NCBI GenBank assembly: GCA_021163005.1 | Contig: JAGGXP010000020.1 | Coordinates: 164-64,163, forward strand | Reading direction: 5' to 3' | DNA: 64,000 bases | From: Candidatus Aenigmatarchaeota archaeon | GTDB lineage: Archaea > Aenigmatarchaeota > Aenigmatarchaeia > QMZP01 > JAFGSV01 | Shown: piece by piece, positions 1 to 26,282 of the stretch | How positions within the stretch are numbered: position 1 is the stretch's first letter | Layout of the letters: every line of letters begins with the position of its first letter | Translations under genes and position numbers: made by a program | The notes under the pieces: model-generated | Told to the model about the DNA's origin: nothing | Seen by the model: only the letters and a program-made list of their open reading frames with translations | Database searches by the model: none

Positions 1-213
1 ACAACGAGGGAACCCTGTTCCCGATGCTTCCGCGTGAGTGGATGCAAGGGAATTTATTCCCGATGCTTCCGCTTGCGCCAAAAGCTTAACGAAAACAAGC
101 CTTTTACAGGAGCTCCGTTCCCTCCGGAACTTCACGTCCGCAAAAGCCTTGAGGGAAAAATGAATATTTACATTATAACGTGCTGTCGGGGAAATTTATC
201 CGTGCCTTCGTGT

Positions 214-332
214 CTCGGGTCAAAAGGCTGCTGAGCTTCGGATAACAGATTGCGCTGTCCGAACTCATCTTTTCCGTTAACACTTAACCATTTTACGGGA
301 GTTGAAACGTCCGCCAAAAGCTTAACGAAAAT
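214..332. repeat. Intergenic repeat module copy A (CTCGG-TCAAAAGGCTGC-GAGCTTCGGATAAC..GCGCTGTCCGAAC..TTTTCCGTTAAC..CCAAAAGCTTAACGAAAA)
   Basis: About 85-90% identical to 21960-22068 and 22218-22300. Contains the hairpin GAGCTTCGGA/TCCGAACTC at 233-266. The CCAAAAGCTTAACGAAAA motif also occurs at 78-95. Confidence 0.75.
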
Positions 333-512
333 GGTAAGAACATACCAGCGGCATCTCTTCTTTCAGGAAGCCTGTTCCGGGAAGCGCCTTATATATTGGC
401 GGCAGCCGGACTTTTCGTTAACGTTTTTGGATGTTTCTGAATGCCAATTCGGAAACAAGGGGATGCATTTCTGCGCCTTATTCCCGCAGTTTATCCTGTC
501 CAAAAAGGTTAG

Positions 513-676
513 TGCGGAGGCGAGGGTTCGAACCTCGGAACCCACTAAGGGAGCAGGTCTTGAGCTTCGACTTCACCAAGCAAGCGCTTTCAGCGCTCAA
601 GAGGCAATCTGCCGCGTTTAGCCCCCGACTGCTACGCAACAACAGCCTGCGGGTTTGACCACTTCGCTACCTCCGC
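513..676 (-). tRNA. tRNA-like gene with ~90-nt internal insertion (putative intron-containing class II-type tRNA; anticodon unresolved)
   Basis: Minus strand reads GCGGAGG-TA-GCG-AAGTGGTCAAACC-CGC ... CGAGG-TTCGAAC-CCTCG-CCTCCGC-A. The 7-bp acceptor stem is perfect, the T-arm with TTCGAAC loop is canonical, and the D-arm resembles class II (Leu/Ser) tRNAs. A CCC-TTAGT-GGG long-variable-arm-like hairpin precedes the T-arm. About 90 nt of insert carries its own stems (CTTGAGC..GCTCAAG and GCGC-TGAAA-GCGC). I could not fold a clean anticodon arm by hand. Confidence 0.4.
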
Positions 677-718
677 ATTTACAATAAGTAATACAATCAA
701 TGGTTTTAAAAGCAGCAT

Positions 719-1138
719 CTAACCGGAAAGCGACTGCAACTCTGTCTTGAGCCTGTCTATCTGATCGTATATGCTCTTGACGTAGTTTTCCACGTCGTCG
801 GGTGGTTTTATTGACGAAGACGTGTCAGGAGACGGGCCGGACTTCTGGAGTAGCTTCATATCTATTGAGGAGATTATGATGTTGACCTTGTCAAGAACCT
901 TGTTCGTGAGGCTCATGGCGGTCTTGAATTCCTTTTCAATCTCTCCCATGGCATCAAGGGCGTCCCTGAGGCCGAGTGAATAGGACCTCAGCTTCTGTAT
1001 GTCGTCGAGGAGCTCTTTGTATCTCTCGACCTTTACAAAAACAGGCGGCACCTTGGGCTTGCTTGAAGGAACAGGGAGAACAGGTTTTGTCTGTACGGCC
1101 TTCTTTATCTGGGACTCAAAATCTTCTGCCATAACCAC
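719..1138 (-). CDS. hypothetical coiled-coil protein
   Basis: 139-aa ORF with a heptad-like charged composition and a Pro/Lys-rich N-terminal segment. No recognisable catalytic motif. Confidence 0.45.
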   Translation of the reverse strand: MVMAEDFESQIKKAVQTKPVLPVPSSKPKVPPVFVKVERYKELLDDIQKLRSYSLGLRDALDAMGEIEKEFKTAMSLTNKVLDKVNIIISSIDMKLLQKSGPSPDTSSSIKPPDDVENYVKSIYDQIDRLKTELQSLSG

Positions 1139-1178
1139 TCAACCAAAAAGCTATATCTTATCTTTCGGTCCCTGATTT

Positions 1179-1937
1179 TTAAATGTTAACCGCCGGACCC
1201 CTTGAAGACCTCCACAACTCCCTGAAAAACTGCCTGTATGACAGCGCGACCTTTTCGCTTCTTATGAGCGTTATGACTGGATGCTCGGACCAGACTATGA
1301 CCGCGACCTTGCCGCCGTAGACCCATGTCGTGGAAGGCGTGTCGTAAAGCGCCTTGTTGAACCTCATTTCAGCGTTATACACTGGTTCACGGGACTTTGG
1401 CGCCCTTATCTTGTCGCTGTATATTATCTTCATGTGGATACGTGCCTGCGCACGCCTCCTGTGCCAGTTCCTCGAATACACCCTGAACATGTCCATGAAG
1501 CGTCCCTCGGCGCCGAACACGAGAAGCTCGGTACCGCTCCTGAGCACATCCTCGGCCACGGTCTTAAGGCCTTTCCTTCCCGTATATACTGTAGCCTCCT
1601 GCTTCTCCTTTGAAAGCGTCCTCTTCATCTCAAGTTCCGGAACAATCTCCTCAAGCTTTTGGCGCCTCTCCCTCAACTCCTCTTCCCTTTCCTCAAGATA
1701 GTGAAGGAACTTGCTGGGAGAAGCGGCCTCGAAATACCTGCGCTCGGCCTTCTTTATGTAGCCGACTAGCCCTTTCTCCGCAAGGCTTCTGAGCGCGTCA
1801 TATACATTGGTCCTGTTGACGCCGGAAGCCTTTGCTATCTCGCCGGCTGTCACGGAGCCCAGATCAAGCAGCGCCAGGTATATCTTGGCTTCATTTCCGG
1901 CAAGGCCGGATTCCCGTAAAATCTTTTCTACATTCAT
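1179..1937 (-). CDS. TrmB-family transcriptional regulator (N-terminal wHTH)
   Basis: N-terminus LAGNEAKIYLALLDLGSVTAGEIAKASGVNRTNVYDALRSLAEKGLV is a typical TrmB HTH. Length 252 aa. Confidence 0.65.
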   Translation of the reverse strand: MNVEKILRESGLAGNEAKIYLALLDLGSVTAGEIAKASGVNRTNVYDALRSLAEKGLVGYIKKAERRYFEAASPSKFLHYLEEREEELRERRQKLEEIVPELEMKRTLSKEKQEATVYTGRKGLKTVAEDVLRSGTELLVFGAEGRFMDMFRVYSRNWHRRRAQARIHMKIIYSDKIRAPKSREPVYNAEMRFNKALYDTPSTTWVYGGKVAVIVWSEHPVITLIRSEKVALSYRQFFRELWRSSRGPAVNI

Positions 1938-2080
1938 AGTGTTGTAATATAATATTACAACATAATTATATATAAGTACGAAGTTATCCGTTTTTTATGA
2001 ACGAAGATCATAATGTTGGAATTTTTTCAGAAAATATTTATGAAAACAAATAGAATGCGTCGGCCGGGATTCCCAGCTCT

Positions 2081-2135
2081 CTGAACCGCAGGGGGCACAT
2101 CCCCCTTCAGTTCTAAGGTGTTCCTGATTCCCCCT
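2081..2135. repeat. 55-nt structured element, identical copy at 22131-22185
   Basis: Exact 55/55 match. The sequence CTGAA-CCGCA-GGGGG-CACAT-CCCCC-TTCAG forms an extended hairpin. Confidence 0.8.
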
Positions 2136-2344
2136 TTATTTTCTTCTTCCGGGGGAAACCTGGGCACCATTCCTCTCTTCCCTTTAACGGGGAATAATGC
2201 TTTAAGGGGGCGTATAAGCGTAAGCTATCGTGGCCCCCTTGAGCCTTTGAACCCGGGTTACAGCGTTGGCAACGCCGTGTCATAACCAGACTAAACTACC
2301 GACGCGTGTGTAATGTTCTTGTATGTCAATTAATAAAAGTTTTT

Positions 2345-2644
2345 TCATCCGAATATCGCGCCGAAGCCGTCCGCGGCGCTCGATTCCTGCTTCTCGATGA
2401 TGCCGATTATATCTTTCGCTTCCTTGTCCTTCAGCTCTTTCGCCGAGTCCTTGAGAATCTCCCTCGCCTTCTTTATGGCTTCATCTTCGCCGTCGAGGAG
2501 CATGTAATATCCTTCCTTTTCCTTTTCCACCGAAGAGTTGTCCCTTATCGTTATACTCTGCCTTGAAACGAGCTCGTCGCCGTAAAGTCTGTTCTTTGCG
2601 CTGCCGTACTTCTCCTTCTCCACGAAAAACACTGCCTTCATCAA
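2345..2644 (-). CDS. hypothetical small acidic protein
   Basis: 99-aa ORF rich in K/E. No confident family assignment. Confidence 0.35.
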   Translation of the reverse strand: MMKAVFFVEKEKYGSAKNRLYGDELVSRQSITIRDNSSVEKEKEGYYMLLDGEDEAIKKAREILKDSAKELKDKEAKDIIGIIEKQESSAADGFGAIFG

Positions 2645-2666
2645 AACACCTCACTTTGAAATTAAA

Positions 2667-4070
2667 TTAGAGTATCCTGCTTTTAAAATAATCGCCGAGA
2701 AATGACGCAAGGTTTTCATTTTTCGCAGCTTCCCTTACAACGCCGGGGCCTTTGGCTATGCTGAATCCGGAAGCAATCGATTCCGCAGGATGGGAAGATA
2801 TGCCATTGGCCCTCAGTGTTTTGATGTCATGCTTAAGCATATCCCTGAGAAGGGCGCCTGCATCTGTGTACTCTCTCTTTATTTCTGCCACGAGGTTTGC
2901 GCCTTCGACCCAGATGCGTCCCTTTCCCCTGTATTTCTTTGTGAATTCATCGCTGTGCTTCTTCGAGAACGTGGGCGGGCCTGCCAGCTTTTTTATCTTC
3001 GGAAGTTTCCACACCTCCAGCTCCATGAAAATCAGGCAGCGCTTAGCATCACACCATACATCGTGCCCGAGCACCTTGAAATCAGCATCCTCCAATACCC
3101 CTTTCAGTCGTCTGGAAGTCCTCCTGAGCTGCGGATATATGACATCGTCAACAACATCCGGCCTTTTGAAAAATATGCCCAGACACTCTGTTCCCCTCTT
3201 CTCCATCATGGATGAAAGCGCCTTTGTACTGACCTGCATTCTTTTCACACGGAAATACTTCTCGTCAGGGTCTTTCAGGAACTCCCTGGCAGCTTCCTTG
3301 AATTTCTCAAAATTGGCAGGAGAAAGAGCAGCGGCGACATTCCTTTTTGAATCGACAGGGTCTATGACCACTAGCGGCTGGCCGAGGTAAATCTTCTTCA
3401 GGTCGGGCACTGTCTTGTGGTGTTTCCTGAGGTCTATGAACACCTTTCCGGCTTCCCACGTGGAAGCATCTTTTAGGAGGTTAAGAAAGCTTCTGTATCG
3501 TATTATGAGAAGCTCTGAAAGGTATCCGGAAAATCCCTCCACCCTGAGGTCCGAACCGTAGATTCCGGCTGCTTTCAGGAATATCTTGAGCAGCCTGACC
3601 TCAGAGGAAAGTTCCGGTGTGAGATTCTGCAGTATGTATTTGTTGTGATGAGGTGTTCTGTCAACTGCCGACTTTATCTTTTCCGGGTTCTTTATGTCGT
3701 AGCAGGGAACAAAATCAACATCATAGCCGCCTATCTTCGCCCTTACATAAGGATGCTCGGCGTATGCGATCTCATAGGTTCCCTCGAGCCTTTCGACTAT
3801 TTCTTTTGCAAGCGAAAGTCCCTTCTTCTCGAGCTCTGCTCTCTGGACAGTTTCCGGGAAGAGTATGAATATGTCGAATTCCTTCTTGTCCTTCAGCCAA
3901 GTATCCCTGAGATATGAACCGGCAAGCGTGTAGATGAGGCCGGCATTCTCAGTAACCTCCTTTGTTGCTCGCCGTATGCCGGCAAGAACCTTTTCGGTCT
4001 TTTTTCTGTCGTTTTCTGTGGGTGTTATGCGCCTGAGTACGCGCTGCAGAACCATAGAGGCGTCTTTCAT
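2667..4070 (-). CDS. cca: CCA-adding tRNA nucleotidyltransferase (archaeal class I)
   Basis: 467 aa. N-terminal polymerase-beta-like region follows the archaeal CCA enzyme layout (..AGSYLRDTWLKDKKEFDIFILFP..). The long C-terminal body fits cca. Confidence 0.7.
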   Translation of the reverse strand: MKDASMVLQRVLRRITPTENDRKKTEKVLAGIRRATKEVTENAGLIYTLAGSYLRDTWLKDKKEFDIFILFPETVQRAELEKKGLSLAKEIVERLEGTYEIAYAEHPYVRAKIGGYDVDFVPCYDIKNPEKIKSAVDRTPHHNKYILQNLTPELSSEVRLLKIFLKAAGIYGSDLRVEGFSGYLSELLIIRYRSFLNLLKDASTWEAGKVFIDLRKHHKTVPDLKKIYLGQPLVVIDPVDSKRNVAAALSPANFEKFKEAAREFLKDPDEKYFRVKRMQVSTKALSSMMEKRGTECLGIFFKRPDVVDDVIYPQLRRTSRRLKGVLEDADFKVLGHDVWCDAKRCLIFMELEVWKLPKIKKLAGPPTFSKKHSDEFTKKYRGKGRIWVEGANLVAEIKREYTDAGALLRDMLKHDIKTLRANGISSHPAESIASGFSIAKGPGVVREAAKNENLASFLGDYFKSRIL

Positions 4071-4989: not shown

Positions 4990-5421
4990 GTGAGGGCAAG
5001 CGGCTATTATCTGAGAAAGTGTCTCAGAGACCTTGAAGGAAAACTGATAGTGGTCGAGGGACTTAAAGACAGAAAGGCTTTAAAAAGCCTTGGTGTAAAA
5101 AATATTATGCATCTTGGCGGCAGACCGCTCGCCGATTTCACCCTTCATGTTTCAAAATCATTAGTTCACAACGACGCTGAATGTGATGAAGTAGTAATAT
5201 TGACAGATTTTGATTCTAAGGGCAGGGAAATTGCGGCGAGGCTCGGTCTTCTTTTCAAGAGGCATAAAATACGAGTGAACTCACGCGTAAGGAATGAGTT
5301 TATGAGATTTGGCAAAAGCTGTATAGAAGATTTTAAGGAAGGTGATGTTTATGGCAAAGCTGGCTCCAACATCAATAAAATACGTGGTGAAAGCCACAAT
5401 AAAGGCAAAGGGCGTGATTGA
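4990..5421 (+). CDS. small Toprim-domain protein (COG1658-like)
   Basis: Motifs LIVVEGLKDRKAL and VVILTDFDSKGREIA match the Toprim E and DxD signatures. About 140 aa. Overlaps the dnaG start. Confidence 0.5.
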   Translation: MRASGYYLRKCLRDLEGKLIVVEGLKDRKALKSLGVKNIMHLGGRPLADFTLHVSKSLVHNDAECDEVVILTDFDSKGREIAARLGLLFKRHKIRVNSRVRNEFMRFGKSCIEDFKEGDVYGKAGSNINKIRGESHNKGKGRD

Positions 5422-6565
5422 AAAGCCCGATGTCATAGGAGCTGTTTTTGGTCAGACAGAGGGACTGCTTGGTTCCGAACTTAACCTGAGGGACCTGCAG
5501 GAAACAGGCCGCATAGGCAGGGTTGAAGTGAAGGTCAGGTCAAAAGGCGGGCAGTCAGAAGGTGAAATAATAATACCAAGCTCGCTTGACGCAGCTGAAA
5601 CCGCGCTGATTGCTGCAACACTGGAGACCATAGAAAGGGTCGGCCCCTGCACAGCGACAATAACTGTCGATTCTGTTGAGGATACAAGGTCCGAGAAGAG
5701 AAAATATGTTGTTGAGAAGGCAAAGGAAATACTCAAAGGCCTTGTTGACAGTGGTGTTCCTGATGCGGACGACATATCAGAGGAAATCAAGGAAGCTGTC
5801 AGAACGCATGAGATAACCTCGTTCCAGGGGCTTCCCTGCGGACCTAATGCGCTCGATTCTGAGGAGATTATAATAGTCGAGGGACGGGCTGACATCATAA
5901 ATCTGCTCAAACACGGCATAAGGAACACCATAGCCATTGAAGGCGCAAGTGTTCCTCCTGCAGTCGCAGCGCTGTCAAAGGAAAAAGAAACAACAGCATT
6001 CATGGACGGCGACCGTGGCGGAGAACTCAATCTCAAAGGGCTGCTCGAGACAGCTGACATAGATTTCGTGGCGACTGCACCAGAAGGGAAGGAAGTGGAA
6101 GAACTCACAAAGAAGGAGATATACAAGGCCCTCAGGGAGAAGGTTCCTGCAGCACAATACAAATTCAAAAACAGCATGGGAAAGACCAGCAGGTCTGCGT
6201 CATCGACAAGGTCAGATAAGCAGACATCAAGGCCGCGCTCTTCAAGAAACGAAAGGACTGTCAGGGCGCCGAGACTCAGGAAGGACCAAAAGGAAAAATT
6301 CAGGAAGATACTTTCGGAGCTGGTTGGTTCAAGGGCTGCGTGCATCTACGACTCGAAGAACCAGCTTCTGGGAAAGGTTCCTGTAAGCGAGCTTATCAAC
6401 ACATTGAGAACAATAGATAATCCCAACACAATCGTATTCGACGGCAAAGTTGACCAGAAAATAAACGGCATTGCTGTTGAAAAAGGTGTCAAGTGTCTTG
6501 TAGGCATGGAAAAGGAAGAAATACACTCACCTGTAAACATAGTGAGCAAGAACGACCTGGAGTGA
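5351..6565 (+). CDS. dnaG: archaeal DnaG-like primase (Toprim)
   Basis: N-terminus ..KPDVIGAVFGQTEGLLG.. and IIVEGRADIINLLKHGIRNTIAIEG..FMDGDRGGELN are hallmarks of archaeal DnaG. Start is ambiguous among the ATGs at 5342, 5345 and 5351. Basic low-complexity tail. Confidence 0.85.
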   Translation: MAKLAPTSIKYVVKATIKAKGVIEKPDVIGAVFGQTEGLLGSELNLRDLQETGRIGRVEVKVRSKGGQSEGEIIIPSSLDAAETALIAATLETIERVGPCTATITVDSVEDTRSEKRKYVVEKAKEILKGLVDSGVPDADDISEEIKEAVRTHEITSFQGLPCGPNALDSEEIIIVEGRADIINLLKHGIRNTIAIEGASVPPAVAALSKEKETTAFMDGDRGGELNLKGLLETADIDFVATAPEGKEVEELTKKEIYKALREKVPAAQYKFKNSMGKTSRSASSTRSDKQTSRPRSSRNERTVRAPRLRKDQKEKFRKILSELVGSRAACIYDSKNQLLGKVPVSELINTLRTIDNPNTIVFDGKVDQKINGIAVEKGVKCLVGMEKEEIHSPVNIVSKNDLE

Positions 6566-6573
6566 GTATGAAT

Positions 6574-6660
6574 ATGCCGAATCTGCGCATGGAGCGCAGC
6601 AGTAAACGGATGCCGAATCTGCGCATGGAGCGCAGCAGTAAACGGATGCCGAATCTGCGG
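6574..6660. repeat. 36-bp tandem direct repeat (2.4 copies), each unit with CTGCGC-N5-GCGCAG palindrome
   Basis: ATGCCGAATCTGCGCATGGAGCGCAGCAGTAAACGG occurs twice, followed by a partial third copy. It lies between the dnaG stop and the M24 peptidase start. Confidence 0.85.
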
Positions 6661-6696
6661 CCCGGCAGGAAGAAAACAGAAGAACTGATATCCAAG

Positions 6697-7731
6697 ATGA
6701 CCGAAATGGGATTGGATGCTCTTGTTTTTGTAAACAATGAGCCGCTTCTGGACACGAACATAGCCTACCTCACGGGCTTCAGGGGCATGCTCAACGGCGC
6801 GCTGGTGTTCACACCCGACGGCACAACACTCATAACAACAGGGCTTGATTACAGCCGCGCCGAAAAAGAGGCAGAAGCAGATGAGATTGTCAAAATTCCC
6901 TCGTCCTCTGGATTCTACAAGTTTTTAGGCAGCAAAATAAAGGGCTACAAAAAACTGGGTGTAATCAAAAACCTGTTTAGTGTTGAAATGGCTGAAAAAA
7001 TGAGGCTTAAACTCGCGGCTCTTGAAGATGTAAAACCGATAATGTCCAAGCTCAGGTCAGTAAAAACTGAAGGGGAAATAGAGGCTATACGAAAGGCCGG
7101 CAGAATCTGCAACAAAGGGCTGGACATAATTTCAGGCATGCTTGCCAGGGAGGTAACTGAGACTGAAATAGCCGCGGAGCTTGAAAGTGAACTGAAAAAA
7201 TCAGGTTCTGAGCACCTTGCATTTGAAACAATTGTCACAAGCGGGAAGAGATCCGCGCTTGTCCATCCGGCTCCCCCTGCATCGCAGAAAGCTGTTGGCC
7301 GCGGACTGGGGCTTGTCGACTTCGGCGCTGTATATGATGGTTACTCAACAGATGTAACTGTGCCATTTGCATTGGGGAAAATTAACGCAAAGGAGGAAAT
7401 ACTCATAGAAACAGTAATTTCTGTCTGGGATGAACTCAGAAATCTTCTGAAGCATGGTACAAAAACCAGCAACCTCCATGACATTTATGTGAATCATATG
7501 AAAAGGGGGGGTCTTGAAGTGAGGCACTCGCTCGGCCACGGCGTGGGAATGGACGTTCACGAATATCCGAGCCTCAGCAGCCCTGAAAGCATGCTTGAGG
7601 AAGGCATGGTTGTGGCAGTCGAACCCGGCGCCTACCTTGACGGAGTGGGTGGCTGCAGGCTTGAAAACACAATACTGATAAAAAGGAAGGGATATGAAAT
7701 GCTCACGAAATCAAAGTTAATAAGGATGTAA
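6697..7731 (+). CDS. M24-family Xaa-Pro aminopeptidase/dipeptidase
   Basis: HSLGHGVGMDVHEYP metal-binding motif and the creatinase/prolidase architecture. I placed the start at the ATG downstream of the tandem repeat rather than at the long-ORF start 6493. Confidence 0.75.
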   Translation: MTEMGLDALVFVNNEPLLDTNIAYLTGFRGMLNGALVFTPDGTTLITTGLDYSRAEKEAEADEIVKIPSSSGFYKFLGSKIKGYKKLGVIKNLFSVEMAEKMRLKLAALEDVKPIMSKLRSVKTEGEIEAIRKAGRICNKGLDIISGMLAREVTETEIAAELESELKKSGSEHLAFETIVTSGKRSALVHPAPPASQKAVGRGLGLVDFGAVYDGYSTDVTVPFALGKINAKEEILIETVISVWDELRNLLKHGTKTSNLHDIYVNHMKRGGLEVRHSLGHGVGMDVHEYPSLSSPESMLEEGMVVAVEPGAYLDGVGGCRLENTILIKRKGYEMLTKSKLIRM

Positions 7732-12481: not shown

Positions 12482-13891
12482 ATGATGAAGGAAAAACTCG
12501 AAAGTGTCAATGAATTCGAATGGAGGTTGCCGAAAAGCGCCAGAAAGGAGATGAAGGTAGATGCGAGAATAATCGCCAACAGCAAAATAATGAATGCCAT
12601 AGAGGATGACGCTGTCCAGCAGCTCACCAATGTGGCATGCCTTCCGGGAGTGGTCGAACCTGTGATAGGGCTTCCGGACATGCACTGGGGTTACGGCCTT
12701 CCCATGGGAGCCGCTTCTGCATTCGACGCCAACGAGGGAATAATATCAGCCGGACTGTGTGGCTTTGACATAAACTGCGGCATAAACCTCATAAGAACCA
12801 ATCTTCCTTATGATGAAATCAAAAAGAAGCAGAAAGAGCTCGTCGAGGAGCTCTTCAGGGCAATACCCGTCGGCGTCGGCGCCAAGGGAAAGCTCAGGCT
12901 GACGAGGGACGAGCTTGAAGAGGTGCTTGTCAAGGGTATTGACTGGGCAGTTGAAAACGGCTATGCAACAAAGGACGACAAGAGGGCGACGGAAGAGAGC
13001 GGAAGGATGGATGGGGCTGACCCTTCAAAGGTCTCCGACCTCGCAAAGAAGAGGGGGCTGCCACAGCTTGGCACGCTCGGCGCGGGAAACCATTTCCTTG
13101 AAGTGCAGAGAGTGAGTGATGTCCTCGACAGCGAAACCGCGGATAAATGGGGTATAAGTGGTGAGAACCAGTCTCTCATAATGCTTCACTGCGGCTCAAG
13201 GGGCTTCGGCCATCAAATAGCAACAGACTACCTGAAGATACAGGAAGATGCTGTGAAAAAATACAGCATATGGCTGCCGGACAAGCAGCTTGCTTGTGCA
13301 CCAGTAAATTCCGACGAGGGTCAGGACTTCTTCGCAGCCATGCAAACCGCAGTCAACTATTCGTTCACCAACAGGGCTGTCATGACCAAATGGATAAGGG
13401 AAGTCTTTGAAAAGGTGTTCAGCCGCACATGGGAAGACATGGGCATGGATACCCTGTATGCCATAGCGCACAACATAGTCAAGCTTGAGGAATTCAAGAT
13501 TGACGGCAAGACGCGCAAGCTTTATGTTCACAGGAAGGGCGCAACAAGGTCGTATCCGGGCAAGCCTGTCATAATAGCCGGAAGTATGGGAACTAGTTCT
13601 TATCTTCTGCAGGGCACCGAAAACGCACTCAGGAAGACATTCGGCTCGTCAGCACACGGGGCCGGAAGGGCCATGAGCAGGCACAGCGCAATAAAGAAGT
13701 TCTGGGGCGGGAAGATAAAGGAGGAGCTTTCAGGCAAGGGGATTGAAGCAAGGAGTCCGAATCCGAAAAGCCTTGCAGAGGAGGCCCCGCTCGCCTACAA
13801 GGACGTGGAAGCTGTGGTTGATTCAGTGCACGGGGCCGATGTAAGCACGAAAGTGGCGAGGCTGGTGCCTGTATGCGTGGTCAAGGGATAG
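12482..13891 (+). CDS. rtcB: RtcB RNA-splicing ligase
   Basis: Motifs DINCGINL, HCGSRGFGHQ, HNIVKLE and SSAHGAGR. 469 aa. Confidence 0.9.
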   Translation: MMKEKLESVNEFEWRLPKSARKEMKVDARIIANSKIMNAIEDDAVQQLTNVACLPGVVEPVIGLPDMHWGYGLPMGAASAFDANEGIISAGLCGFDINCGINLIRTNLPYDEIKKKQKELVEELFRAIPVGVGAKGKLRLTRDELEEVLVKGIDWAVENGYATKDDKRATEESGRMDGADPSKVSDLAKKRGLPQLGTLGAGNHFLEVQRVSDVLDSETADKWGISGENQSLIMLHCGSRGFGHQIATDYLKIQEDAVKKYSIWLPDKQLACAPVNSDEGQDFFAAMQTAVNYSFTNRAVMTKWIREVFEKVFSRTWEDMGMDTLYAIAHNIVKLEEFKIDGKTRKLYVHRKGATRSYPGKPVIIAGSMGTSSYLLQGTENALRKTFGSSAHGAGRAMSRHSAIKKFWGGKIKEELSGKGIEARSPNPKSLAEEAPLAYKDVEAVVDSVHGADVSTKVARLVPVCVVKG

Positions 13892-13915
13892 ACCGAAAGA
13901 AATAAAGATATACAC

Positions 13916-13926
13916 TTATAATAAAT
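13916..13926 (+). promoter_or_regulatory. TATA-box-like CTTATAATAAA about 30 nt upstream of rps26e
   Basis: AT-rich octamer at the archaeal promoter distance. Confidence 0.3.
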
Positions 13927-13955
13927 GAGAATCAACATTTTAAGAGGTGAAATCA

Positions 13956-14222
13956 ATGCCGGTTAACAAAGGATACAGCAGGGGATGGAAGCATGGAAAG
14001 GAAAGGGGCAAGGAGACACTCGTGACGTGTGCATTTTGCGGCAGGAAGGTCCCGAAGTACAAGACATTCTCTGTTGTGCGTGGCTTCAGGATAACAGACC
14101 CCATGCTGAAGGAAGAACTTGGCAGGAAAGGCGGAAGGGGCGTATCGCTTATGAGCAACAAGATGTATGCCTGCCCTGGATGCGCCAGACACAGGCACAT
14201 AGTAAGAAGAAAGAAAAGGTAA
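13956..14222 (+). CDS. rps26e: 30S ribosomal protein S26e
   Basis: C-x2-C..VPKYK(T)F..C-x2-C pattern with a basic N-terminus and a RRKKR tail. SD AGGTGA lies 7 nt upstream of the ATG at 13956. Confidence 0.7.
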   Translation: MPVNKGYSRGWKHGKERGKETLVTCAFCGRKVPKYKTFSVVRGFRITDPMLKEELGRKGGRGVSLMSNKMYACPGCARHRHIVRRKKR

Positions 14223-14226
14223 ACGC

Positions 14227-15915
14227 ATGAAATTGTGGAGACTGGATTTCCTTAAGGGACTCGGGGAGCTTCTCAGGAAAGAAAAGGCAGCAGCCCATCC
14301 CAATTTCTATATCAGGGAGCCGGCATATTTGTTCAGCCTGCCTGTATCAAAGGACGTCAGGAAAGTTGATATAAGATATCCGCTTCTCGAACCGCTTGCA
14401 TCGGCCCACATAAAGTGGGACCCTGTAAAGAAGACGCTCATTTACCATGTTTCTGAACCGAAGCTCTCGAAGGCCGACAGGGAACTCATAGAGAAAGTCA
14501 AGACTGACATAACAGAGCTCATAGACGTCGAGCTGACAGCACTGAATGACAAGGGAAAGACGCTCGACTATATACAGGAAAAAGTAAGCAAGGTGCTTGA
14601 GGAAGAAAACATCAGGCCTGATTCGAAGAGCTACATAAAACTCATGTATTACATCTACCGGGATTTTGTGGGCCTCAATGAGATAGAGCCGCTGATGCAC
14701 GACCCTTACATAGAGGACATAGGCTGCGACGGCTTAAACAGCCCCATTTACGTTGTTCACAAAATCTTCGGCTCTGTTGAAACAAACATAAGATACACCA
14801 ACATGGATAATCTGAACAACTTTGTTGTAAAGCTTGCCGAGAGATGCGGCCGGTACATATCATATGCAAGACCGCTGCTTGACGGCTCGCTGCCTGACGG
14901 CTCAAGGATACAGGCGTCGCTTGCAAAGGACGTTACAACAAGAGGTCCTACGTTCTCAATAAGAAGGTTCAGGAAATTCCCGCTGTCGCCTGTGGAACTC
15001 ATGAATCTTGGAACGGCTGATTCTGATGTCATGTCGTATCTCTGGCTTGTCATGCAGTCGGGTGTCTCTATGCTGGCATGCGGCGGTGTGAGCACGGGAA
15101 AGACCAGCCTCCTCAATGCAATAACTCTTTTCATCCCCCCTGGCTCAAAAATTGTTTCAATTGAGGATACACGCGAGCTCAACCTGCCGCATGAAAACTG
15201 GATACCATCTGTTTCAAGAACAGGCTTCGGCGTCCCTGACTCCACGGGAAAAAGATACGGAGAGGTAACACTTTTCGAGATTCTGAAGGAGTCATTCAGG
15301 CAGAACCCCGATTATGTGATAGTAGGCGAGGTAAGGGGCAAGGAGGCATATGTAATGTTCCAGGGCATGGCTTCCGGACACCCGAGCATAGGGACAATAC
15401 ACGCCGGATCTGTCGATGATGTTATCAAAAGACTGGAGACTCCACCAATATCCATATCGCCCAGCCTCGTGGAATCACTTGACCTGCTCATAGTAATGGT
15501 AAAGTCAAAAGAGCGAGGCGAGTCCGCGCGAAGGATCAAGGAAGTGGTAGAGATACAATCTGTGGACATCGAGACAGGCAAGGCAAAGACGCTTAAAAGT
15601 TTTATGTGGGACCCTGCGACTGACAAGTTTCAGAGCAATATCACGGAATCCGAGCTTCTAAGAAAGATATCCTTTGACAAGGGACTCACATACCAGAAAA
15701 TAACAGAGGAGCTCAAGAACAGAAAAAGGGTGCTCGAATGGATGCAGCGCCACGGCGTGACCAACTACGGAAGCGTTGCAGAGTTCATTTACATGTACTA
15801 CAAGGACCCGAAGGTTCTCATGAAATGGGTGGAGAAGGACGTGCACCCCTTTGAGGCAAAAAGCAAGTCAAAGAAACTGCGGGGGTTCGTGACAAAACTA
15901 AAATCTCTTGAATGA
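14227..15915 (+). CDS. type IV filament (archaellum/pilus) secretion ATPase, FlaI/ArlI/PilB-like
   Basis: Walker A GGVSTGKTS followed by IVSIEDTRELNL, and the VirB11/GspE-family layout. 562 aa. Confidence 0.85.
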   Translation: MKLWRLDFLKGLGELLRKEKAAAHPNFYIREPAYLFSLPVSKDVRKVDIRYPLLEPLASAHIKWDPVKKTLIYHVSEPKLSKADRELIEKVKTDITELIDVELTALNDKGKTLDYIQEKVSKVLEEENIRPDSKSYIKLMYYIYRDFVGLNEIEPLMHDPYIEDIGCDGLNSPIYVVHKIFGSVETNIRYTNMDNLNNFVVKLAERCGRYISYARPLLDGSLPDGSRIQASLAKDVTTRGPTFSIRRFRKFPLSPVELMNLGTADSDVMSYLWLVMQSGVSMLACGGVSTGKTSLLNAITLFIPPGSKIVSIEDTRELNLPHENWIPSVSRTGFGVPDSTGKRYGEVTLFEILKESFRQNPDYVIVGEVRGKEAYVMFQGMASGHPSIGTIHAGSVDDVIKRLETPPISISPSLVESLDLLIVMVKSKERGESARRIKEVVEIQSVDIETGKAKTLKSFMWDPATDKFQSNITESELLRKISFDKGLTYQKITEELKNRKRVLEWMQRHGVTNYGSVAEFIYMYYKDPKVLMKWVEKDVHPFEAKSKSKKLRGFVTKLKSLE

Positions 15916-21750: not shown

Positions 21751-21959
21751 ATATAATTAGAATCCAGAGCTCTAAACTAATCCTTTTCCTAACATAAACA
21801 GTGTAATACTTACCTGATTGTAAAGTATTTAAATGAGTATGCATCAATATTGTTATGGAACAGAACGCACTGCTTTTGAAAAAACTTGTGAAAGAGATTG
21901 CTGCCATAAGGGCAGAACTTGCCGGATTAAGGAAAGACTTGAATAAATGACTGGCAGAA

Positions 21960-22068
21960 AAGGCTTACTGAGCTTCGGATAACTGTTTGCGCTGTCCGAA
22001 CTCATCTTTTCCGTTAACGCTTAACCTTTTTACGGCAGCTTCCGCTTGCACCAAAAGCTTAACGAAAA
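21960..22068. repeat. Intergenic repeat module copy B1
   Basis: Matches 214-332. Hairpin GAGCTTCGGA/TCCGAACTC at 21970-22003. CCAAAAGCTTAACGAAAA at 22051-22068. Confidence 0.75.
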
Positions 22069-22130
22069 TGTTAAGACTTTACCACTGCGCTGCATGTCTC
22101 GGCCAGAAAGCATCCGGGCTGCATTAACAT

Positions 22131-22185
22131 CTGAACCGCAGGGGGCACATCCCCCTTCAGTTCTAAGGTGTTCCTGATTCCCCCT
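22131..22185. repeat. 55-nt structured element (second identical copy)
   Basis: Identical to 2081-2135. Confidence 0.8.
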
Positions 22186-22217
22186 GAAAATGATAGGTTA
22201 ACCACGCCTTTAATGCC

Positions 22218-22300
22218 TCGGTCAGAAAAGGCTGCCGGGCTTCGGATAACTGTTTGCGCTGTCCGAACCCGTATTTTCCGTTAACGCTTTTTGGCAGTAT
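22218..22300. repeat. Intergenic repeat module copy B2
   Basis: Hairpin at 22236-22271 with GGG/CCC replacing GAG/CTC. A GTTTCTGAATG(T/C)CAATTCGGAAAC palindrome occurs at 22408-22436 and matches 433-460. Confidence 0.7.
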
Positions 22301-22617
22301 GGACAGAAAAGGGTTAAGCGGAGAAGGGGATTTCCACACACCTTTTGCCATTTGGTTACAAGACTTCTCTTTGTTGTCAACGGATGTTTCCGTCAACGCT
22401 TTTGTCCGTTTCTGAATGTCAATTCGGAAACAAGGGAACTCATCCTGCTTGTTCCCGAAGCTTGCTTTGGCAAAAGGGTTGTATCGAACCCCTCTGAATC
22501 GGTATCTATCGGTCATCAGCACAAGCCTACCAATACCGCCTGCAGCCGATCGCCTGAACCACTCGGCCATCTCCGCTTGGTATCCTAAATTAATAGGAGG
22601 AGTTTTAAATTAATTAT

Positions 22618-23475: not shown

Positions 23476-24741
23476 TTGATAATTATGGGTTACATACAGA
23501 CTGGTTACAGGCCGGACAAGAACGACCTTGTCTGCGAGTTCTATATCGAGCCCGCAAAGGGCTCCACTGTAAAGAAAGCGGCGGAGCACGTGGCTTCCGA
23601 ATCCAGCACAGGCACATGGACTGACGTCGCCACAATGAAGCCGCGTATCAGGAATCTCGGCGCGAAGGTATTTGAGATAAAAGGCAAATGGGTGAAGATT
23701 GCCTATCCGTCCGAGCTGTTCGAGGGCGGCAACATGCCCCAGATATACAGCTCCATAGCCGGCAACATATTCGGAATGAAGATTGTCAGAAACCTAAGGC
23801 TCGAGTCGATGCACTGGCCGAAGAGCATAATGAAATCGTTCAGGGGTCCGATGTTCGGCATACCCGGTGTCAGGAAGCTGCTCAAGGTAAAGAACAGGCC
23901 CCTGCTGGGGACAATAGTAAAGCCGAAACTCGGCCTCAACGAGAAAGAGCATGCAAAGGTCGCTTATGATGCATGGAGAGGAGGGCTCGACATAGTCAAA
24001 GACGACGAGAACCTCTCCAGCATGAAGTTCAACCACTTTGAGAAAAGGGTAAAAGAGACATTAAAGATGAGAGACAGGGCAGAAAGGGAGACCGGAGAGA
24101 GAAAAATGTACATGCCCAACGTGACAGCCGAAAGCCGGGAAATGCTCAGAAGGGCCAGGTTCATCAGGGACAACGGCGGGGAATACATGATGGTTGACAT
24201 AGTCACAGCCGGATGGTCAGGACTTCAGACGCTGAGGGAAGAGAACCAGGACCTGAAGCTTGTCATGCATGCGCACAGGGCCGAACATGCCGCATTCACC
24301 AGGAACCCAAAACACGGCATCTCCATGCTGGTCCTGGCTGAGAGCGCGAGGCTGATAGGTGTGGACCAGATACACATAGGGACTGTTGTCGGGAAGATGG
24401 AAGGGAAAAAAGAGGACGTAATGGACACAGAGGATGAAATCGAGCATCGCATCATAAGGGAACACGGGCACGTGCTTGCCGATGACTGGGGAAGCATCAG
24501 GCCTGTTTTCGCTGTGTGCTCAGGCGGGCTCCATCCCGGACACCTGCCAAAGCTCGTTGCGATACTCGGCACCGACATCATAGCGCAGTTCGGCGGCGGC
24601 TGCCACGGTCATCCCGGAGGAACGGTTAAAGGCGCTGCAGCCATTAGGCAGGCCGCGGAGGCTGTCATGGAGGGCATTGATTTAAAGGAGGCTGGAAAAA
24701 GTAATTATGAACTCAGGGAAGCCTTGAAGAAGTGGTCATGA
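23476..24741 (+). CDS. rbcL: ribulose-1,5-bisphosphate carboxylase large subunit, form III
   Basis: GGLDIVKDDENL, KPKLGL and HAHRA motifs. 421 aa. Confidence 0.85.
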   Translation: MIIMGYIQTGYRPDKNDLVCEFYIEPAKGSTVKKAAEHVASESSTGTWTDVATMKPRIRNLGAKVFEIKGKWVKIAYPSELFEGGNMPQIYSSIAGNIFGMKIVRNLRLESMHWPKSIMKSFRGPMFGIPGVRKLLKVKNRPLLGTIVKPKLGLNEKEHAKVAYDAWRGGLDIVKDDENLSSMKFNHFEKRVKETLKMRDRAERETGERKMYMPNVTAESREMLRRARFIRDNGGEYMMVDIVTAGWSGLQTLREENQDLKLVMHAHRAEHAAFTRNPKHGISMLVLAESARLIGVDQIHIGTVVGKMEGKKEDVMDTEDEIEHRIIREHGHVLADDWGSIRPVFAVCSGGLHPGHLPKLVAILGTDIIAQFGGGCHGHPGGTVKGAAAIRQAAEAVMEGIDLKEAGKSNYELREALKKWS

Positions 24742-26282
24742 TGAAGCTTAAAGTGAAGATCCTTGGTCTTGAGGCCGAGAAGCCGGTCGTTGTAATCAAC
24801 AAATCCGATGCCGAAGAAATAGACGTGAGGCCGCTTGACAGGGTTGACATGACAACAGGCAGGAGAAAGGGGACAGCCATTGTCAATGTTGCCACGCATT
24901 TCATAAGGCCGGGTGAGATAGGGCTTTACAGCGAGATAGCTGACCACATGAAAGCCGCCAACAATGAAACCATCGATGTACTGCCTTCGAACCCGCCGTC
25001 ATCACTCATACACATAAGGGAGAAGCTTGCCGGAAAGCCGCTTGATGAGAAGGGGATGAGAAAAATCGTTGAGGATGCTGTAGCGAGGAAGCTTTCCGAC
25101 ATCGAGATGACGGCGTTCGTCACAGCCCTGTATAATCACGGCATGACGACAACGGAGGTTGCCGCTTTGTCAAAGTCCATGGCGTTCACGGGGAAGACGC
25201 TCGACCTCGGTAAAAAGGAAATATTCGACAAGCATTCAATAGGCGGCGTTCCTGGGGACAAGACATCGATGATGCTCGTTCCCATAATAGGGGCGGCAGG
25301 CCTTACAATACCGAAGACATCCAGCAGGGCCATAACGTCTCCAGCAGGAACAGCCGACAGATTTGAATGTCTTGCGCCTGTTGATCTCAAGCTTGAGGAG
25401 ATAAAGGCTGTGGTTAAAAAAGTGAATGCCTGCCTCGTCTGGGGAGGGGCAGTTGACCTTGCGCCTGCAGATGACCTTTTCATAAAAATAGAGTACCCGT
25501 TGTCGATAGACCCGCTTCTTCTGCCTTCTGTGATGTCGAAGAAGAAGGCGGTAGGCGCGAAGTATCTCGTCATAGACATACCGACCGGAGAAGGCACGAA
25601 AATCAAGAGCACCAAGGAGGCTGAGGTGCTTGCTGAAAAATTCATAGCCCTTGGAAAAAGCCTGGGTATAAAGACTGTCGGTGCCTCTACTTTCGGAGAA
25701 CAGCCAATAGGGCATGCAATAGGACCGGCTCTCGAGGCGCGGGAGGCTCTCTCGACGCTCATGGACGGCAAAGGCCCGGCAGATGTCGTGGACAAGGTAA
25801 CCAACGTTGCCGGCATGCTTCTTGACTTTAAGCTAAGGAAAGGAGGCAAGCAGGAGGCATTGAGGATTCTCAAGACAGGGAAGGCCTACAAAAAGCTCAG
25901 GGAAATAATAGAGGCGCAGGGCGGAAATCCTGACATAAAGCCGGATGACCTCGCTCTTGGCGCAAAGCGCATCGAACTGAAATCATCAGTCAGCGGTGTC
26001 GTTTCATGGATAGACAACAGAGCGATAGTCGAGGTGGCGAGGGCGGCGGGCACGCCGAAGGACAGGGGCTCCGGCATATACATACACAAAAAGATGGGTG
26101 ACAGCGTAAAGAAGGGTGACACGCTTCTAGAGATATACGCCGAGAAGGAATACAAACTTGAGAGGGCGCTGAAAATAACAAAGGAAGTCAGGGTAATGGG
26201 AATCGGCAAGAAGGTTGATATGCTTCTGGAAAAGATACCAAGGATGGTTGAGCATCCGAAATACTTCATACTGGAAAGGTAA
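24741..26282 (+). CDS. AMP phosphorylase (thymidine phosphorylase family)
   Basis: MKLKVKILGLEAEKPVVVIN N-terminus and SIGGVPGDKTSM. ATGA overlap with the rbcL stop. Confidence 0.8.
   Translation: MKLKVKILGLEAEKPVVVINKSDAEEIDVRPLDRVDMTTGRRKGTAIVNVATHFIRPGEIGLYSEIADHMKAANNETIDVLPSNPPSSLIHIREKLAGKPLDEKGMRKIVEDAVARKLSDIEMTAFVTALYNHGMTTTEVAALSKSMAFTGKTLDLGKKEIFDKHSIGGVPGDKTSMMLVPIIGAAGLTIPKTSSRAITSPAGTADRFECLAPVDLKLEEIKAVVKKVNACLVWGGAVDLAPADDLFIKIEYPLSIDPLLLPSVMSKKKAVGAKYLVIDIPTGEGTKIKSTKEAEVLAEKFIALGKSLGIKTVGASTFGEQPIGHAIGPALEAREALSTLMDGKGPADVVDKVTNVAGMLLDFKLRKGGKQEALRILKTGKAYKKLREIIEAQGGNPDIKPDDLALGAKRIELKSSVSGVVSWIDNRAIVEVARAAGTPKDRGSGIYIHKKMGDSVKKGDTLLEIYAEKEYKLERALKITKEVRVMGIGKKVDMLLEKIPRMVEHPKYFILER

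Follow-up and report, generated by a model that had tools for sequence, protein, structure and literature searches.

A family of hairpin repeats in tRNA introns, behind tRNA genes and at protein-gene 3' ends of an Aenigmatarchaeota archaeon

The repeat modules shared by three regions of a 64,000-nt stretch of archaeal DNA (hereafter, the window) belong to one family of hairpin elements (hereafter, E) that sits in tRNA introns, after tRNA genes and after some protein genes. The regions lie at 1-718 (region A), 21751-22617 (region B) and 1938-2344 (region C), and each carries a minus-strand tRNA gene with introns. An initial annotation of the window had read them as noncoding, and regions A and B as devoid of credible ORFs, which proved wrong: they hold three intron-split tRNA genes, and region B also encodes a conserved 31-codon ORF (21855-21950). 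The structured, dispersed repeat family that it proposed was borne out, but the regions are tRNA genes split at bulge-helix-bulge motifs, and the modules are their intron and 3'-trailer sequence. What had been termed a tRNA-like element is indeed tRNA sequence, though as a real tRNA gene in every region and not a mere resemblance. The relatives of the CCA-adding enzyme encoded here are Aenigmatarchaeota (DPANN) MAGs, and the gene content is archaeal. Compared contigs and loci, including metagenome contigs and relatives, are labeled L001-L028.

ARAGORN reported 0 tRNAs in the raw window because introns interrupt all three genes, which are laid out as follows.

513-676, minus strand: class II tRNA gene that carries two insertions and is most likely tRNA-Leu(CAA) (Rfam tRNA, 30.4 bits; gathering score 29)
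618-654, minus strand: D-loop intron of tRNA-Leu, 37 nt, relaxed HBh' type, not in the L008 and L011 orthologues
565-607, minus strand: anticodon-arm insertion of tRNA-Leu, ~43 nt with approximate boundaries, common to L008 and L011
2056-2305, minus strand: tRNA-Gly(GCC), with exon 1 at 2246-2305, a 176-nt T-loop 59/60 intron at 2070-2245 and exon 2 at 2056-2069
22317-22576, minus strand: tRNA-Cys(GCA), with exons at 22540-22576, 22483-22503 and 22317-22330
22504-22539 and 22331-22482, minus strand: the tRNA-Cys introns, at 37/38 (36 nt) and in the T-loop at 59/60 (152 nt)

Once the introns are removed, ARAGORN calls a 74-nt tRNA-Gly(gcc) and a 74-nt tRNA-Cys(gca). The T-arm is uninterrupted at 59/60 in the intron-less tRNA-Cys orthologues (L020, L021, L025, L027 and L028), and the predicted spliced T-arm, AGGGG-TTCGATT-CCCCT, is found exactly in L020 and L028. 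By these calls and the T-arms of the intron-less orthologues, the exons fit together as a canonical cloverleaf, as expected of EndA-spliced tRNA introns. An orthologous tRNA-Gly intron is present in L008, L009, L011 and L013, and the ARAGORN tRNA-Gly calls in L008 and L009 run on into it. In public gene calls, tRNA-Cys is covered by a 135-aa "protein".

The junctions have the expected form. Across ten genes from eight genomes, the T-loop introns show an outer helix of 5–6 bp, a central helix with 3–4 of 4 pairs and a long inner helix; tRNA-Cys has a 4/4 central helix (H) and a 6-bp outer helix, and tRNA-Gly a 4/4 central helix (H), a 5-bp outer helix and a 4-bp inner helix. All 59/60 introns and both 37/38 introns fit the hBHBh' or relaxed motif, and the D-loop intron is of the HBh' type, with a 4/4 central helix and a 4-bp inner helix but no outer one. 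For the anticodon-arm insertion of tRNA-Leu (565-607), a search for a bulge-helix-bulge register found none. Scanned strictly for bulge-helix-bulge motifs, the arrays yielded many matches at chance level and no consistent junctions on either side of the modules, so the free-standing modules are not introns themselves. Split or permuted tRNA genes were dismissed, as each locus holds all its exons contiguously and in colinear order. A gene for the ligase RtcB lies at 12482-13891 (Pfam E-value 4.8e-155), and no splicing endonuclease (EndA) was seen among the window ORFs scanned.

From its long variable arm, its A73 and the CUCAAGA kept in three orthologues, we read the isotype of the tRNA-Leu gene as probably Leu-CAA; two orthologues reach 41.6 bits (L008) and 41.9 bits (L011) with the Rfam tRNA model. 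ARAGORN offered Ala(UGC) for 513-676, a reading we rejected as the relevant stretch is not conserved among orthologues. In L008 the gene lacks both the D-loop intron and the 570-nt trailer array, which points to their recent gain.

A covariance model of E (R1) was run over 327 kb (~330 kb) of sequence. Its scores are given with the elements and modules of the window below.

394-512, minus strand: E directly 3' of the tRNA-Leu discriminator base, its first loop carrying a nested insertion (R1, 48.3 bits, E-value 2.6e-10)
433-488, minus strand: nested 56-nt module holding the palindrome 433-456 (module 3), with a homologous 52-nt copy at 22408-22459
290-331, minus strand: module 2 copy, an inverted partial E core (314-331)
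222-285, minus strand: module 1 copy, in which the 3' half of E is combined with a 38-nt hairpin (231-268) and the first part of the unit that follows
1-95, minus strand: module 2 copy with an internal duplication (18-33 and 57-72; core 78-95), in an array that passes the window edge (L005, 11850-12010)
2080-2135, minus strand: 56-nt hairpin module inside the tRNA-Gly intron, with an exact copy at 22130-22185 and a variant in L003
22369-22482, minus strand: E copy that makes up the 5' portion of the T-loop intron of tRNA-Cys and holds the nested module 22408-22459 (R1, 47.8 bits)
22257-22317, minus strand: E directly 3' of the tRNA-Cys discriminator base, which is copy 3 of module 1 (R1, 39.5 bits)
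22130-22185, minus strand: the other copy of the 56-nt module, part of the array that trails tRNA-Cys, identical to 2080-2135
22027-22068, minus strand: module 2 copy, an inverted E core (22051-22068)
21959-22022, minus strand: module 1 copy with a hairpin at 21968-22005

All five modules follow one grammar of a ~55-nt E core, nested hairpin modules and inverted half-copies. The core reads AACC(C)UUUU(U)G-stem-loop-CAAAA(A)(G)CGUURAC(G)GAAA(A)G-UAAGC. Module 1 corresponds to the 3' half of E, where a 38-nt hairpin has been inserted into the second loop; its three predicted copies were recovered (222-285, 21959-22022 and 22226-22289) at 88–89% identity. Module 2 is an inverted partial E core, found as three exact copies (78-95, 314-331 and 22051-22068) plus an inverted copy with three mismatches (412-429), and the internal duplication attributed to it, TTCCCGATGCTTCCGC, lies at 18-33 and 57-72. 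Module 3 is a 52–56-nt insertion in the first loop of E, and its palindrome was located at 433-456 and 22408-22431; the 52-nt copy at 22408-22459 holds the same loop position within a diverged E copy. The fifth module, 2080-2135 and 22130-22185, is a further hairpin module; the repeat is exact as announced, with a length of 56 nt instead of 55. These repeats are genuine and far exceed chance expectation, with 3 matches against 0.00 expected for the 30-nt core of module 1 and 4 against 0.05 for the module 2 core CCAAAAGCTTAACGAAAA. Region A is truncated by the window edge, and in L005 its array continues for about 130 nt to the rpl18e promoter. In region B, the hairpin 22235-22273 overlaps the 3' end of the trailer E, and the array runs as far as the stop codon of the 31-codon ORF, which is convergent to it.

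E can be modeled as two hairpins, P1 and P2, the first of which was covered by the covariation test. In P1, 91.7% of cells are paired, against 29–57% in slid controls, three pairs have changed on both sides, and none of 500 shuffles reached its score. The loop sequences and an 18-nt core are conserved, and the 8-nt center of the core is self-complementary throughout, by way of compensated changes (CGTTAACG, CGCTAGCG and CCTTAAGG). In folding tests the module 1 unit reached z = −4.2 for the sense and −3.0 for the antisense strand, and lone E copies were no more stable than shuffled sequence (z = −0.7 to −1.0). Strand signals from the G-U versus A-C asymmetry conflict and were left unused.

In this clade E takes four positions: T-loop 59/60 intron, 37/38 intron, after the discriminator base and after a stop codon. 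Matches to R1 were confined to tRNA-linked sites and L002/L004 in the 327 kb and revealed a new copy in the 37/38 intron of tRNA-Glu(CUC) in L024. The host tRNAs are non-homologous, namely tRNA-Cys at 59/60, tRNA-Gly at 59/60 (L011 and L013), a second class II tRNA at 59/60 (L003) and tRNA-Glu at 37/38 (L024). Nor is the family confined to introns, as copies directly follow tRNA-Cys, tRNA-Leu and the stop codons of RpoN (L001) and an 86-aa ORF (L002/L004). In this species E has expanded into nested arrays of tandem units, which occupy the space between convergent genes. With their mosaic of palindromic units, starting at a tRNA end or a stop codon, these arrays have the extragenic 3'-end layout of REP/BIME elements. 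Every full-length copy has the same sense as its host or upstream gene, and inverted ones are partial cores only. The modules also occur beyond these loci: module 1 is present in four other metagenome contigs, and its sites there include the downstream sides of an RpoN gene and a membrane-protein gene. The modules are species-level: scanning genome contigs with the module 1 core gave 0 matches, and blastn-short found no module copies among relatives at ~41–66% protein identity.

Occupancy of the same site differs among close relatives. The E intron of tRNA-Cys is present in the window, L023 and L024 and absent from L020, L021, L025, L027 and L028; E is in the trailer only in L020, in the intron only in L024 and in both in L023 and the window. 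The orthologous introns of L023 and L024 are uninserted, the trailer copies of L020 and L023 are homologous to that of the window, and L008 has an empty site where E trails tRNA-Leu. The L016 contig differs from the window by 8 substitutions, every one inside 22234-22273, a cluster that looks like a signature of gene conversion. Between L023 and L024, identity is 93% in the tRNA-Cys E intron, 80% in the adjacent e2b2 gene and 84% in the 37/38 intron.

Searches for other functions returned little. Rfam, at gathering and permissive thresholds, gave one tRNA match and nothing else, with zero matches to the SRP RNA, RNase P, C/D and H/ACA families that had been suggested as checks; no exact C box and no C/D architecture was found on either strand of any array. 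None of the tests run supported the proposal of independent small-RNA genes or regulatory cassettes. K-turns or K-loops, H/ACA RNAs (the ACA box is absent) and hidden tRNA halves in the arrays were dismissed on inspection. An origin-recognition box was also rejected: the palindrome and G-string are ORB-like, yet there are only two copies, one of them intronic.

Our preferred explanation, held with some confidence, is a lineage-specific, probably mobile repeat family of introns and trailers that is removed by tRNA processing, where we infer both transcription and mobility. Intronic copies would be cut at the bulge-helix-bulge by the splicing endonuclease and the exons joined by RtcB, and trailer copies would be lost in 3'-end processing, or transcription would stop by the T-tract. 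The family would be a non-autonomous, largely selfish sequence, spread and homogenized as DNA through gene conversion or recombination among its copies, and among tRNA genes it would persist only at sites that let its two ends fold into a bulge-helix-bulge junction. Intron copies end in 9–14-bp inverted repeats that form the inner helix of the splice junction; trailer copies do not.

Several observations sit uneasily with this explanation. No transposase, integrase or reverse transcriptase linked to the family was found among the ~18 window ORFs scanned against Pfam. Filled and empty tRNA-Cys T-loops differ by a clean insertion between 59 and 60, with no target-site duplication; the initial annotation's label of MITE-like may still serve as a description, but the duplications it named as the mark of MITEs were not there. 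With neither such duplications nor a consistent target sequence, the argument for mobility is one of distribution. The nested module is flanked by a weak AAAC/AAGC repeat only. The greater conservation of the E intron than of e2b2 and the 37/38 intron (L023/L024), with the conserved loops and 18-nt core, points to functional constraint rather than junk, and a selfish element leaves the compensated, self-complementary 8-nt core unexplained. A T4–T5 tract inside essential tRNA introns is also awkward, because oligo-T is a termination signal of archaeal transcription.

Some of these features would follow if E and its derivatives were functional RNA modules, an alternative to which we give a low probability. 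They would be co-transcribed with the tRNA or mRNA and freed by RNase Z or the splicing endonuclease, perhaps in the form of intron RNAs that are stable or circular, and would act through the conserved loops or the self-complementary core, for example in protein binding or as an aid to tRNA maturation or modification. Guide RNAs borne in an intron are known from Haloferax tRNA-Trp, and tRNA-sRNA co-transcripts from Nanoarchaeum; E resembles both in being structured RNA in a tRNA intron or just downstream, but differs in having neither C and D boxes nor an Rfam match. The covarying P1 stem and conserved loops, the intron that is more conserved than adjoining coding sequence, the sense orientation of every full copy, the stronger sense-strand fold of the module 1 unit and the compensated 8-nt core all favor function. 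Weighing against it, besides the missing Rfam family and C/D-box architecture (nor were an ACA box or K-turn seen by eye), is the absence of E at the same tRNA in close relatives (L021, L025, L027 and L028), where it is hence dispensable; copies are full of nested insertions and strain-variable, and single ones fold no better than shuffled sequence. It is rather improbable that the arrays are instead 3'-end cassettes of the REP/BIME kind, whose T- and A-tract hairpins would terminate transcription bidirectionally or protect 3' ends between convergent genes, intronic copies being accidental. The arrays do open right after the tRNA end or stop codon with CC(C)TTTT(T) and reach the convergent stop codon, a plain T-tract holds the same place in E-less orthologues, A-tracts are T-tracts on the opposite strand, and the mosaic, nested build is like that of BIMEs. 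However, E also lies inside tRNA introns, where termination would harm, and one T-tract would suffice: relatives manage with an 11–18-nt gap. An array of 350–570 nt is also hard to justify in a reduced genome. Orientation does not alternate, unlike that of REPs in BIMEs, and a non-exhaustive search saw no RAYT-like gene.

The arrays might alternatively be attL/attR scars left by repeated integration and excision of viruses or plasmids at the T-loop and the 3' end of tRNA genes, both classic crossover sites of integrases. In L003 the 16-nt 3' exon AATCCTGCCCCCCGCA is duplicated 95 nt apart, and disruption of a tRNA gene by a mobile element has been proposed for Caldiarchaeum (PMC3293823). Yet we regard this origin as very improbable, given that no integrase or other element genes were seen beside the arrays, the window has no partial tRNA duplicates, the intron sites are clean insertions without duplicated tRNA sequence, and E follows protein genes too. 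A scan of 2.9 million viral contigs with the 56-mer, the module 1 core, the 18-mer and a degenerate E core gave nothing or a few matches at chance level. As for assembly artefacts or chimeras, the same-population contigs L016-L019 do end inside the region B array, and L002 and L004 break at the tandem repeat. The arrangement nevertheless recurs in the independent assemblies L005 and L017 (the latter a different assembly), which are essentially identical to the window over regions A and C and the covered part of B, with one base just past the tRNA-Leu gene as the sole difference seen. As the introns moreover yield exact tRNA exons and bulge-helix-bulge junctions, and relatives from unrelated projects show the same architecture, the chance that the repeats are artefactual is close to negligible.

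Among known systems, the non-canonical bulge-helix-bulge intron of ARMAN-2, also a DPANN archaeon, shares with a T-loop intron here the tRNA, the 59/60 insertion point, the kind of junction and the superphylum, and the ARMAN-2 endonuclease is reported to have cleaved it in vitro. The ARMAN-2 intron is 13 nt long against 67–176 nt here, and the introns here, unlike it, are made of a common structured element and have relatives outside tRNA exons. In the Thermoproteales, intron families have "transposed" among tRNA genes (Fujishima et al. 2010, summarised in PMC4090602 and PMC3239211), a transposition that those summaries present as inferred, giving no mechanism and no copies outside introns. 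Common to both are recent, lineage-specific gain and related introns in non-homologous tRNAs at different positions; unlike those families, which are intronic in the summaries, E is also found in 3' trailers and downstream of protein genes, builds up tandem and nested arrays, has a covarying hairpin and belongs to a different phylum. In Caldiarchaeum subterraneum a 1.8-kb recombinase-encoding element is proposed to have disrupted a tRNA gene (PMC3293823). In both cases a tRNA locus is heterogeneous within the population, an intron has been gained and tRNA fragments are duplicated (compare L003), but the units described here are non-coding and measure 40–120 nt, and a recombinase was not found. 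Bacterial REP/BIME sequences and MITEs are short, non-coding hairpin units that form dispersed, strain-variable extragenic mosaics at gene 3' ends. E shares these traits and differs from them in its archaeal host, the lack of target-site duplications and of any RAYT or transposase partner seen, the single orientation of full copies and the many copies within tRNA introns, bounded by splice junctions.

More tentatively, E is possibly an archaeal counterpart of introners, a small, structured, non-autonomous mobile element moving among gene 3' ends, tRNA trailers and tRNA introns. It would turn into a bona fide intron once its ends form a bulge-helix-bulge junction with a T-loop or anticodon loop, and the tRNA-Cys series (L020, L024, L023 and the window) would then be intermediates of intron gain or loss, with L003 and its duplicated 3' exon another. 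If true, this would be the first concrete route for the origin of archaeal tRNA introns. The differing occupancy of the same tRNA among close relatives, with the signs of gene conversion, makes the pathway of gain and loss testable within one clade. Since such tRNAs are missed or mis-called by standard tools, DPANN genomes will look tRNA-poor. An element that occurs as T-loop intron, anticodon-loop intron, tRNA trailer and gene 3'-end repeat offers a handle on how archaeal tRNA introns are gained.

The window is archaeal by gene content (class I CCA-adding enzyme, RadA, ribose-1,5-bisphosphate isomerase and form III RuBisCO), and its nearest genomic relatives are Candidatus Aenigmatarchaeota MAGs. 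The repeat-bearing regions A (1-718) and B (21751-22617) and a third at 1938-2344 had been described in the initial annotation as lacking genes; in fact, intron-split tRNA genes are present on the minus strand. ARAGORN called no tRNAs in the window and Rfam called one, at 513-676, with insertions of 40 and 48 nt. Reading of the minus strand revealed two further genes with T-loops broken after position 59, for which ARAGORN, once the introns were removed, called tRNA-Gly(gcc) and tRNA-Cys(gca), 74 nt each.

Features of the window
513-676, minus strand: class II tRNA, read as tRNA-Leu(CAA)
1179-1937, minus strand: TrmB-family regulator gene, with a palindrome just upstream
Exon 1 2246-2305, intron 2070-2245 (176 nt), exon 2 2056-2069, minus strand: tRNA-Gly(GCC), T-loop intron at 59/60
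2667-4070, minus strand: CCA-adding enzyme gene, ~360 nt upstream of the intron-split tRNA-Gly, with a 99-aa ORF between
12482-13891, plus strand: RtcB, archaeal tRNA-splicing ligase (Pfam E = 4.8e-155)
Exons 22540-22576, 22483-22503 and 22317-22330, minus strand: tRNA-Cys(GCA), 36-nt intron at 37/38 (anticodon loop) and 152-nt intron at 59/60

The class II tRNA has A73 and a conserved CUCAAGA loop, from which it is read as Leu(CAA). It carries a 37-nt D-loop intron that is absent from the orthologues in two relatives (L008 and L011), and no bulge-helix-bulge parse was obtained for its ~43-nt anticodon-arm insertion. An A/T-rich box lies ~25-35 nt upstream of each of the three tRNAs. A publicly called 135-aa hypothetical protein in a strain variant (L016 22-429, equivalent to window ~22163-22570, minus strand) overlies tRNA-Cys and its intron and is almost certainly spurious, and 72-nt ARAGORN calls for tRNA-Gly in L008 and L009 extend into the intron and were rejected.

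Junctions were fitted to the standard bulge-helix-bulge geometry (per strand, a flanking helix, a 4-nt central helix and a 3-nt bulge cut after the second base). The register was validated on the canonical 37/38 intron of tRNA-Cys, whose outer helix is ATCGG/CCGAT and whose inner helix is CGGT/ACCG. All T-loop introns fit as well, i.e., those of tRNA-Gly and tRNA-Cys in the window, tRNA-Gly in L008, L009, L011 and L013, tRNA-Cys in L023 and L024, a class II tRNA in L003 and tRNA-Glu in L024. In these the outer helix (5-6 bp) is the T-stem, the inner helix is long, and the central helix pairs UUCR with YGRR (3-4 of 4 pairs). Position 59/60 is a known insertion point: ARMAN-2 pre-tRNA-Cys(GCA) carries a 13-nt intron at this point, which the ARMAN-2 endonuclease cuts in vitro (PMC3239211). 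We conclude that the three regions carry intron-split tRNA genes with proper splice junctions.

The repeats themselves were recovered largely as first reported. Module 1 occurs at 222-285, 21959-22022 and 22226-22289 (88-89% identical), module 2 at 54-95, 290-331 and 22027-22068, with its internal duplication at 18-33 and 57-72, and the palindrome-bearing block (module 3) at 412-468 and 22387-22443. The supposed 55-mer is an exact repeat (2080-2135 and 22130-22185) of 56 nt. In dinucleotide shuffles of the window, 0.00 matches were expected for the module-1 core (3 found) and 0.05 for CCAAAAGCTTAACGAAAA (4 found, one inverted). Agreement of independent assemblies rules out an assembly artefact.

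Comparison of the orthologous tRNA-Cys upstream of the e2b2 gene across eight genomes was decisive for reducing the modules to one ~55-nt element, hereafter E.

State of the orthologous tRNA-Cys
L021, L025, L027 and L028: no T-loop intron, T-arm uninterrupted; no element after the last base
L020: no T-loop intron; 55-nt element TAACCCTTTTGTACAAGTAAACGTGCAAAAGCGCTACCGGAAAATAAGC after the last base
L024: homologous element as a 72-nt T-loop intron; nothing after the last base
L023: homologous element as a 72-nt T-loop intron; 270-nt trailer array after the last base
Window: expanded T-loop intron; expanded trailer array after the last base

An alignment of eight copies of E supports a covarying helix of 9 bp, in which 91.7% of cells pair and three pairs have changes on both sides; none of 500 shuffles reached the score, and slid controls were 29-57% paired. 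A covariance model of E, run over 327 kb, matched only tRNA-linked sites and the L002/L004 loci, and turned up a single new copy, in the 37/38 intron of the tRNA-Glu(CUC) gene at L024 4890-5100. This gene has three apparent insertions (the others being a D-loop insertion without a parse and an intron at 59/60 that differs in type). Beside it lie a run of masked bases (N) and the 3' part of a further tRNA split in the T-loop.

Alignment of all 14 model matches placed the modules on E. Module 1 is its 3' half, in which an inserted 38-nt hairpin separates GGAAAAG from TAAGC; L024 and L011 have the form without the insertion (GGAAAG-TAAGC). Module 2 is a partial core, inverted. Module 3 (433-488 and 22408-22459) is inserted into the first loop, at an identical point in two copies that have otherwise diverged. 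The shared "tRNA-like element" (module 4) exists, being the tRNAs themselves, and the 56-mer, found in the Gly intron and the Cys trailer, is an additional hairpin module.

The module-1 core had no match in 185,579 species-representative genomes and was found in four metagenome contigs, so the modules are not confined to these loci. One, L003, is allelic with region A (99.5% identity over 584 nt, with rpl18e flanking). Within its positions 1-270, the array is preceded by a second, different class II tRNA (A73, possibly Leu-UAA) whose T-loop intron holds a module-1 variant with a wholly different hairpin stem (TGCGGG/CCCGCA vs TTCGGA/TCCGAA) and the same 15-nt loop length. The 16-nt 3' exon of this tRNA, AATCCTGCCCCCCGCA, is present twice, 95 nt apart, with a variant of the 56-mer before the second copy. 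The arrays of L001 and L002/L004 lie in convergent intergenic spacers and begin at stop codons: in L001 that of an RpoN gene (Pfam E = 6e-27), and in L002/L004, where two 82-nt units stand in tandem, that of an 86-aa ORF. Array B fills 366 nt between tRNA-Cys and a convergent 31-codon ORF, a gap of 11-18 nt in L025 and L028. The tRNA-Leu trailer is ~570 nt in the window's species, ~150 nt in L011 and ~40 nt, without E, in L008. Every full-length copy of E reads in the sense direction of the gene that hosts it or lies upstream. Between L016 and the window there are eight substitutions, all within 22234-22273, which is the pattern of a conversion tract. A single modular repeat family, expanded in particular lineages and polymorphic in its occupancy, is common to introns, trailers and gene 3' ends.

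Several further features were observed. The 31-codon ORF (MEQNALLLKKLVKEIAAIRAELAGLRKDLNK, 21855-21950, plus strand) inside "noncoding" region B probably encodes a real micro-protein, since homologous small ORFs occupy the same position in L025 and L028. A perfect palindrome, TGTTGTAATATTATATTACAACA (~1939-1962), just upstream of the TrmB-family regulator gene, has similar counterparts at this position in L008 and L009 and is likely the regulator's autoregulatory operator. A further palindrome, TTTAACCAATGCTTATAAAAACCATTGGTTAAA (L005 12047-12079), overlaps the rpl18e promoter just beyond the window's left edge; L008 and L011 have related sequence there with a similar GGTTAAC...GGTTAAA motif. 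A 36-nt exact tandem duplication (ATGCCGAATCTGCGCATGGAGCGCAGCAGTAAACGG twice, 6574-6645) straddles the 3' end of a Toprim-domain ORF (5342-6565), in the listed 5' part of an M24 peptidase ORF (6493-7731). LAGLIDADG inteins interrupt the T2SSE-type ATPase gene in L025 and L028 (395-3586 in L028) and the AMP phosphorylase gene in L025 (intein-bearing genes 524-3628 and 12658-15699); judged by length, neither of the corresponding genes in the window (14227-15915 and 24732-26282) contains one.

As to what the family is, several points pull towards a functional RNA. Conservation extends to the loop sequences and to an 18-nt core, and on the sense strand the fold of the module-1 unit has z = -4.2. 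L023 and L024 share 93% identity in the E intron, compared with 80% in the adjacent e2b2 gene and 84% in the 37/38 intron. The central 8 nt of the core (for example, window 22274-22281; L004 ~60-67 and ~142-149; L001 ~330) are also kept self-complementary by compensated changes between copies (CGTTAACG, CGCTAGCG and CCTTAAGG), and a fourth centre, CGTTGACG, has a U-G pair on the sense strand. The small-RNA family originally suggested was not borne out, Rfam matching no family except tRNA, and the arrays have no C/D-box architecture. A terminator or 3'-end cassette agrees with the extragenic copies but not with the intronic ones. As to MITE-like insertion, also proposed initially, filled versus empty tRNA sites showed no target-site duplications, and no copies of E or its modules were found in viral contigs.

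Multi-intron tRNAs and non-canonical introns are already known in DPANN (PMC3239211, PMC5829648), a mobile-element model exists for Caldiarchaeum (PMC3293823), and Thermoproteales are known to have families of similar introns "transposed" among tRNAs (Fujishima 2010, via PMC4090602). The present case differs in T-loop intron size and in its defined structured core, but mainly in that E also occurs away from tRNA exons, in arrays of nested and tandem copies, and alternates between intron and trailer at one orthologous tRNA.

With moderate confidence, we favor a joint reading of removal and spread. Intronic copies would be cut out by the splicing endonuclease EndA and the exons joined by RtcB, and trailer copies would be taken off by 3' processing or left untranscribed beyond the T-tract. 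The family would be a non-autonomous, mostly selfish sequence spreading through DNA-level recombination or conversion, and tRNA genes would tolerate it where the U-tract and A-tract at its ends are able to form a closed bulge-helix-bulge junction.
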